IMG/VR virus record: IMGVR_UViG_2877251553_000001
Location: 10,207-74,206 of that record
Source: a virus
Taxonomy: Duplodnaviria > Heunggongvirae > Uroviricota > Caudoviricetes
DNA length: 64,000 bases
Direction: 5' to 3' (one strand)
The translations under genes and the position numbers were made by a program. A model generated the notes under the pieces. That model was not told where the DNA came from. It searched no databases and worked only from the letters and a program-made list of their open reading frames with translations. Below, one piece after another: positions 32,907 through 33,685 of the stretch (position 1 is the first letter of the stretch; every line of letters starts with the position of its first letter).

Positions 32907-33685
32907 TTAAAGACTCAAAATTAGGTGAGTAACGGACCGGGACATAGCTCCTTTTTTTCTTAATTCATCTGGTATTTTTTTTCCAAGATAAAGATTTGCT
33001 ATTTCAGGTGGGGCTTCTCGACCTTCAAAACCATAGCGCGAACTTTGTGTTGCCTCAAAGTCAGGATCCTCGTCCCAGTATTTCAACGAAGGGAAATTTT
33101 CACGTGTTGATTTGAGCCATTTATCAGCAATGAAAACCCCTCGAACGATCCCCCTTACAGTAGCAAGAATGATTTCTGCTTGGCTGGCGCGAGAGACATT
33201 AATGCGCCAGCTAAATCGAACCGCATCATAAAGCTCTGAATCCTTTGCACTTCTGTTAACGGATATCATTAATGCTTTATGATGAAATGTTATGGTTTCG
33301 GGCTGATATGTTGCTATCAACTCTTTGACATGCGCGGCGCCGAATTCATTGCTGCCAGCACCATTCATGATATTCGTTAACCCAGGGTAGGCATCAATAA
33401 GTGCTGCTTCAACTTCGTACGCCGTCTTTTCATCAGTCATTCCGTGTCGATGGATGACATGGATAACTTCAAGTCCTGCTAACCTTATTTCTCTAATTTG
33501 CTTTAGCTTGTTGCTCAGTAACTCGTCATCATCAGTCGCTGCCACTTCACCGCGCATATGGGCAAATACGCGGTTACCTTTGCCTTTCCCTACATAGAAG
33601 GTGCTTCCGTCCTCGGATCAATCAATCGGTATACATACCAGCCAAGGTGTTCAATTACTCCAGAAGGAAACTCAGTAATATCCAT
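32907..33685 (-). CDS. GIY-YIG nuclease-domain protein; apparent frameshift near 33597
   Basis: N-terminal region reads [13 protein letters not shown] then, after a one-base frame change, [14 protein letters not shown] (GIY-YIG pattern); remaining 216 aa uncharacterised. Confidence 0.55.

Follow-up and report, generated by a model that had tools for sequence, protein, structure and literature searches.

The closest described relatives of the gene analysed here are CMoRE and PD-T4-3. PD-T4-3 was recovered from ECOR68 as a single-gene anti-T4 defence in a functional selection of the E. coli pangenome (PMC9519451); the main text of that paper (Vassallo et al. 2022) mentions "a GIY-YIG nuclease" without the name PD-T4-3, and the link to ECOR68 comes from the CMoRE paper (PMC12923530). 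With CMoRE, T2, T4 and T6 plate about five orders of magnitude less efficiently (Liu et al. 2026, PMC12923530). In that work the defence was driven by the native upstream DNA, and CMoRE-bearing cultures grew normally at an MOI >1 with intact host DNA, as is also reported there for PD-T4-3 of ECOR68 (PMC12923530). Normal growth at such an MOI indicates that the CMoRE defence is direct and involves no abortive infection. The purified enzyme requires Mg2+ or Mn2+ and cuts DNA containing 5hmC or 5ghmC, while unmodified and 5mC DNA are spared both in vitro and in vivo; T4(C) escapes it and T4(hmC) does not (PMC12923530). The cut, CN11/N9G with 2-nt 3' overhangs, falls between two modified cytosines without a strict sequence requirement, and the whole T4 genome is depleted (PMC12923530).

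Crystal structures are available for CMoRE of E. coli O157:H7 (9U75 and 9U8D) and of APEC O1 (9U7U and 9U7Z). In them the N-terminal domain is of the GIY-YIG type with the motif "GIYxY-YIG" (Y17, Y19 and Y31), and the active site is covered by a 15-residue acidic loop, whose 4A mutant is toxic and cuts ordinary DNA; the tetramer depends on V92 and L96, and the C-terminal domain, which has no detectable homologue, binds 5hm-dCTP via the Y127 main chain (PMC12923530). A Capnocytophaga homologue with 48% identity also cleaves in a modification-dependent manner and cuts Mu DNA too (PMC12366544), and deletion of the gene from the clinical isolate NILS69 makes it sensitive to Tevenvirinae phages (bioRxiv 10.1101/2024.12.20.629700). 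The enzyme, its specificity, structure and distribution are already known from work published in 2022-2026, and the residual points of the present locus are mild: the slot shared with mcrA, the tRNA fragment at the cassette edge, the pairing with an EcoRII-type system and the homologues in jumbo phages.

Several other nucleases are comparable in part. EcoKMcrA, encoded by the e14 prophage of K-12, is likewise a prophage-borne type IV modification-dependent enzyme, but it is an HNH nuclease unrelated to the GIY-YIG enzyme CMoRE. McrA targets 5mC and 5hmC sites and is not known to target glucosylated DNA, whereas CMoRE ignores 5mC and cuts both 5hmC and 5ghmC. PvuRts1I and AbaSI share the substrate class of CMoRE, namely 5hmC and 5ghmC and not 5mC, and their cuts fall at a fixed distance from the modified C (about 11-13/9-10 nt), with a symmetric site on either side and 2-nt 3' overhangs, which closely resembles CN11/N9G. 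They have another nuclease fold and an SRA-like sensor; the likeness is functional and implies no family membership. In comparison with I-TevI, SegA-G, Eco29kI, Hpy188I and the N-terminus of UvrC, CMoRE has an extra tyrosine (GIYxY), an acidic insertion of 15 residues and a C-terminal domain that senses modification, and it is devoid of sequence-specific DNA-binding modules and of the C-terminal half of UvrC. The likeness to LEM-3/ANKLE1 (PF22945) is at the level of the domain only, as CMoRE has neither ankyrin nor LEM domains; the RefSeq name "LEM-3-like" derives from PF22945 and is uninformative on bacterial function.

The interrupted gene and its repaired product

The window, i.e. the whole stretch of viral DNA that was analysed, comprises 64,000 nucleotides. 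An earlier note, made from its sequence alone, had placed a GIY-YIG nuclease gene at 32907..33685, between tfa and an EcoRII-like restriction-modification pair, in an AT-rich accessory region of a lambdoid phage. The location and the setting are both correct, the gene lies on the minus strand, and the surroundings are indeed AT-rich (42-44% GC, against 50-62% in the tail-fibre genes). What does not hold is the continuous reading frame: the interval is 779 nt long, which is no multiple of 3, so a frameshift had been bridged there unnoticed. In a three-frame translation, the frame that opens with the ATG at 33685 stops after 31 codons. The exact 216-residue product of the only long open ORF was encoded by one contig only in the gene-position collection, CP026825.1 (GCA_002949915.1), and an AlphaFold2 model of this product, computed with no alignment, had a mean pLDDT of 41 and a pTM of 0.37, too low to be of use; with the crystal structure of a 97%-identical protein at hand, no model is needed.

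Alignment with E. coli H1, the best among 4,776 matching E. coli records, revealed no substitution over 1301 bp and three single-base deletions, all of them in homopolymers. The same picture of zero substitutions and three homopolymer deletions was obtained against at least 13 genomes, and the three sites, listed in Table 1 together with the other features of the locus, were seen in the alignments with both H1 and O157. In the raw window the "GIY" half of the motif (Y17, Y19) and the "YIG" half (Y31) lie in different frames, and the true stop is the TGA at 32915-32917, as the TAA at 32907 closes the shifted frame only. As it stands, the deposited sequence is unable to encode the enzyme.

Table 1. 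Coordinates of the nuclease gene, its signals and its neighbours (window positions; residues where stated)
Feature	Position	Strand	Description
Hairpin and U-tract	32848..32895	-	Directly after the stop; probable intrinsic terminator, downstream cassette edge
CMoRE/PD-T4-3 CDS	32915..33685	-	257 aa once repaired; assigned from PADLOC, PDB, Pfam and identity to H1
Only long open ORF	32907..33557	-	216 aa: CMoRE M44-S248 plus a shifted 11-residue tail
Frameshift site 3	32917..32920	-	TTTT vs TTTTT; last codon and TGA stop
Frameshift site 2	32939..32941	-	CCC vs CCCC; codons S248/P249; alters the last 9 residues
Frameshift site 1	33611..33612	-	GG vs GGG (coding strand); codons R25/D26; divides the GIYxY and YIG strands
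GIY-YIG nuclease domain	residues about 1-110		Remainder: predicted 5hmC/5ghmC-sensing domain
Upstream region	33686..33885	-	200 bp; travels with the gene between prophages; inferred promoter
Candidate promoter	about 33749-33721	-	TTGTGA-17-TAATAT; found by eye, below the scan threshold
tRNA-like fragment (anticodon arm)	33865..33883	+	Upstream cassette edge; from alignment with O157 EC4115
Dcm/M.EcoRII-type C5-cytosine methyltransferase	34092..35524	+	N-terminal regulatory domain; separate system
EcoRII-type type II restriction endonuclease	35559..36773	-	Pfam EcoRII-N 3.9e-61, EcoRII-C 2.4e-71; separate system

With the three missing bases restored, the minus-strand product has 257 residues. 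The repaired CDS agrees fully with that of E. coli H1 (WP_000355482.1), where it is annotated as an intact 257-aa "LEM-3-like GIY-YIG domain-containing protein". The PADLOC model PD-T4-3 (PDLC04031) matched the repaired protein with an E-value of 7.6e-140 (residues 1-256 on model positions 1-255 of 256), and the PDB search returned 9U75/9U8D (E 5e-171) and 9U7U/9U7Z (E 1.6e-150). Over the 257 residues the identity is 97.3% (250/257) to 9U75 and 85.2% (219/257) to 9U7U. PF22945 (LEM-3_GIY-YIG), the sole Pfam model above threshold, covers residues 28-110 (E 1.4e-14; 54.8 bits against a cut-off of 27). The NCBIfam search gave no family match, and PHROG 5356, a family of unknown function, spans the full length of the protein (5.7e-142). 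Pfam assigns nothing to the C-terminal 150 residues, which is consistent with the published description of a fold without detectable homologue.

The residues probed in the CMoRE work (PMC12923530) are all retained in the repaired protein: Y17, Y19, Y31, R39, D52-D53-D54-E55, R80, V92, L96 and Y127. The GIYxY-YIG motif reads G15-W-Y17-V-Y19 followed by F30-Y31-V-G33, and the nuclease core is identical to that of 9U75. The acidic autoinhibitory loop is DDDE (D52-D53-D54-E55), as in APEC O1, and DDDD in O157. The seven substitutions relative to the O157 protein are T51A, E55D, Q169K, I172V, N197H, S200T and L201M; two of them concern the loop, T51A lying beside it and the conservative E55D inside it, and the other five are the only differences in the C-terminal domain. 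The tetramer-interface residues V92 and L96 and the 5hmC-contact residue Y127 are kept, as is R80. The about 210 residues downstream of the GIY-YIG pattern, which had been left unassigned in the earlier note, can be equated on this comparison with the published modification-sensing domain.

The protein therefore has in common with CMoRE/PD-T4-3 of O157:H7, APEC O1 and ECOR68 the length of 257 aa, the motif, the acidic loop and the oligomerisation and 5hmC-contact residues, and it is likewise a single-gene, prophage-borne system. Every sequence-level mark of CMoRE/PD-T4-3 membership is present except the uninterrupted frame, which three 1-nt deletions break in the deposited sequence. We consider it very probable that the window gene is a CMoRE/PD-T4-3 orthologue, i.e. 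a type IV restriction endonuclease carried on a 1-kb prophage cassette, and that its frameshifts are consensus errors. The RefSeq name "LEM-3-like GIY-YIG domain-containing protein" could be replaced by type IV restriction endonuclease specific for 5hmC/5ghmC.

Origin of the frameshifts

The frameshifts could be real, in which case the gene would be a decaying CMoRE pseudogene of an IS-rich, Shigella-like lineage and would yield no active nuclease. The sequence as given is, after all, frameshifted three times. Site 1 detaches Y17 and Y19 from the remaining protein, and re-initiation at M44 would lose Y31 and R39 too; if real, this frameshift alone would be predicted to abolish catalysis. The prophage may in any case be defective, having an IS2 in its tail-fibre gene and an adjoining island full of IS66, IS110 and IS3 elements, and the IS families in and beside it bear names derived from Shigella (ISSfl3, ISSso6, IS2, IS911), a hint of a Shigella-like, pseudogene-rich lineage.

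Against this reading stands the pattern of the differences themselves. Within the gene, indels outnumber substitutions 3:0 relative to the closest relatives. A 71-nt probe across site 1 matched 838 E. coli records in 833 genomes, and all of them carry the extra base, so that the deletion occurs in none of the 838 and no record is identical to the window. Over 36 kb of the window compared with two reference prophages, we counted 39 single-base deletions and 3 single-base insertions. The proportion of G/C runs that are shortened in the window rises steeply with their length, from 0.07% of the runs of 1-2 and 0.4% of those of 3 to 6.5% at a length of 4, 18% at 5 and 50% at 6 or above. A single one of the 3,782 scored G/C runs is longer in the window, and none among the runs of at least 3. 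This bias towards deletions and its dependence on G/C run length are the signature of consensus-calling error and not of a mutational spectrum.

The same kind of loss is found in genes other than the nuclease. The indispensable phage genes J, terminase and portal are likewise split by homopolymer losses, tfa, dcm and IS2 also appear frameshifted, and the IS2 copy differs from IS2A of K-12 by similar losses (C5 to C4 and G4 to G3); examples of indels are located at 24780, 27021, 27224, 27399, 27575, 32564, 32570 and 35327. The last of these, at about 35327, is a C4 to C3 deletion in the neighbouring methyltransferase gene that cuts off the last 58 residues, including the QFGNSV motif, and it too is most probably an assembly artefact. 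Taken together, these comparisons indicate that the three frameshifts in the nuclease gene most probably stem from errors in the assembly consensus. A genuine pseudogene is improbable, and we are fairly confident that the organism has an intact copy of the gene. Since G/C homopolymers appear to be systematically under-called in assembly CP026825.1, every apparent pseudogene in it should be distrusted.

Phase variation by homopolymer slippage was also considered and was rejected, as runs of no more than 3-5 nt are involved and site 1 is invariant in 838 genomes.

Predicted activity and alternative functions

The activity of the window allele is predicted by orthology, the steps being carried over from proteins that are 97% and 85% identical. 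The protein would form a tetramer, a dimer of dimers, whose C-terminal domain would bind the 5hmC or glucosyl-5hmC of T-even phage DNA entering the cell. The GIY-YIG domain, with Y17, Y19, Y31, a catalytic Arg and Glu and Mg2+ or Mn2+, would then make the CN11/N9G cut, which has a modified cytosine on either side and yields 2-nt 3' overhangs, while the acidic lid D52-D53-D54-E55 would bar unmodified and 5mC host DNA from the active site. The phage DNA would be degraded directly, with no abortive infection. Both the 5hmC/5ghmC-dependent cleavage and the protection against T-even phages are thus attributed to this allele by analogy. The strain is accordingly predicted to be T-even-resistant, which matters for phage typing or for therapy with phages when the host is E. 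coli or Shigella-like.

The suggestion of the earlier note that the gene might encode an anti-phage effector is correct, as the protein is an orthologue of PD-T4-3/CMoRE, a validated defence nuclease; the type to which it belongs is a type IV restriction enzyme and not a toxic effector. A nuclease that acts as an abortive-infection or toxic effector, destroying host DNA once the cell is infected, would find a basis in the latent toxicity of CMoRE, as the acidic-loop 4A mutant is toxic and cuts ordinary DNA. However, the wild-type enzyme protects cultures at an MOI >1 with the host DNA intact, PD-T4-3 of ECOR68 is reported to do likewise, and the acidic loop is preserved in the present protein (DDDE); we regard such a function as very improbable.

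The other function that had been suggested, that of a homing-type nuclease, is not supported. A free-standing GIY-YIG homing endonuclease of the I-TevI/Seg kind, spreading via cuts at cognate sites that lack the gene, would agree with a small stand-alone gene for a GIY-YIG protein in a phage genome, with the annotation of some jumbo-phage homologues and with a weak match to PHROG 314, "homing endonuclease" (E 0.0022, the best homing match among the PHROGs, against 5.7e-142 for PHROG 5356). That match, however, runs through the shared catalytic domain, and no DNA-binding module of the NUMOD/IENR1 type was detected by Pfam. The C-terminal domain is instead the counterpart of the 5hmC sensor of a 97%-identical crystallised enzyme, the published cleavage requires the modification and no strict target sequence, the T4 genome is depleted as a whole, and the gene sits as a cassette at prophage ends and not as an insert in a conserved gene. 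We see scarcely any chance that the protein is a homing enzyme. A housekeeping repair family in a conserved chromosomal context, to which the earlier note had tied the refutation of its proposal, was looked for and not found. Of UvrC, with its C-terminal endonuclease and HhH domains, there was no sign: NCBIfam gave no match, Pfam recognised only the GIY-YIG domain, and the gene lies in prophages and occurs in only 838 of 5,426 E. coli genomes.

The cassette, its carrier and its distribution

The homology between the lambdoid and the O157 contexts runs from the hairpin through the CDS and continues for exactly 200 bp upstream (about 32857-33885). Over these upstream 200 bp the lambdoid version and the e14-like version of O157 are about 95% conserved, and no homology extends beyond them. 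A simple promoter and terminator scan found neither a terminator nor a promoter on the gene's strand. The hairpin folds as RNA at -27.3 kcal/mol (z -4.9), no shuffled sequence folded as well, and it is retained in the O157 context. The upstream region presumably carries the gene's own promoter. From these alignments, the gene would be mobile as a self-contained unit of about 1 kb, promoter region and terminator included.

At the upstream edge, the homology ends inside the tRNA-like fragment, which runs on in O157 EC4115 (L004 6958-7023) through the T-arm to the CCA end (...GGTTCAAATCCCCCTCTCTCCGCCA); ARAGORN predicted no complete tRNA. We take the fragment to be a putative piece of a tRNA-Ser(CGA), by its likeness to E. 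coli serU. It looks like the remnant of an att site carried along with the cassette, and CMoRE appears to have moved as a 1-kb unit bounded by the terminator and this putative tRNA-Ser att-site fragment.

The gene is present in 838 of 5,426 complete E. coli genomes (about 15%). In O157:H7 strains the cassette, made up of the terminator, the CDS and the 200 bp upstream, lies without the restriction-modification pair in an e14-like prophage, directly after the invertase gene pinE (L004 5397-6782, L005 5394-6782), whereas the carrier in the window is a lambdoid prophage at ssrA with the EcoRII-type pair beside the gene. Its occurrence without the pair in other prophages agrees with a single-gene system. 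In e14 of K-12 the position after pinE is occupied by mcrA (L006 5686-7180), which suggests that the prophage end may be an exchangeable slot for type IV restriction genes.

On the tfa side of the gene, the plus strand carries lambda-like genes, namely J, lom, a tail-fibre gene interrupted by IS2, and tfa. On the other side lies the restriction-modification pair, whose endonuclease gene is convergent with that of the methyltransferase; the intact H1 copy of the latter matches Pfam DNA_methylase (4.4e-78) and DNA_meth_N (6.6e-27). In strain H1 the prophage ends at ssrA after this pair. The carrier is a lambdoid prophage integrated at ssrA, and the cassette lies at its tail-fibre-distal end.

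As CMoRE ignores 5mC, it is compatible with the CCWGG (Dcm-type) methylation expected from the adjoining methylase gene. The EcoRII-type pair, directed against unmodified DNA, and CMoRE, directed against DNA with hypermodified cytosine, may together cover both kinds of DNA from one prophage. The two systems might also be co-regulated via the shared divergent region of 364 bp by the N-terminal regulatory domain of the methylase. The combined reading, in which the tail-fibre-distal end of E. coli prophages is a type IV slot and CMoRE is, in the lambdoid version, functionally paired with the EcoRII-type system, is put forward tentatively, and we consider it rather doubtful.

Several features of the surrounding DNA were observed in addition. 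The IS2 at 30783-32112 lies inside the C-terminal tail-fibre gene, the fragments of which are the ORFs 30168..30785 and 32075..32263; sequencing errors aside, the insertion makes the prophage probably defective for tail-fibre production. Within the 3' part of tfa, positions 32604-32802 (+) match Rfam RF02111, "IS009", with 229 bits (gathering score 117). The homology to the prophage/ssrA junction of H1 ends after the last 27 nt of ssrA (37002-37028), and no tmRNA gene was found in the window. A second island follows at 37029-46000; it encodes a P4-type tyrosine integrase (38648..39862) and a DUF6387 protein and contains clustered IS66, IS110 and IS3 elements. The layout resembles a tandem array of elements at the ssrA site.

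No copy more than 60% identical was found in the sequenced temperate coliphages of the collection. Full-length homologues of CMoRE, with 37-45% identity over 97-99% coverage, were observed in jumbo phages of Serratia, Pectobacterium, Pantoea, Klebsiella and Pseudomonas, examples being Moabite, 2050HW, OBP and N1M2 (records ON287376, MK994515, MF285618, JN627160 and MN642089). Their annotations read endonuclease or "putative homing nuclease", and they may serve in competition between phages with modified DNA.

Finally, the regions 59703-63682 and 462-2652 of the window both match a lambdoid early region (N6-adenine methyltransferase, LexA-like repressor, RusA, KilA-N and DUF968), which places the start of a second, related prophage near the right end of the window.
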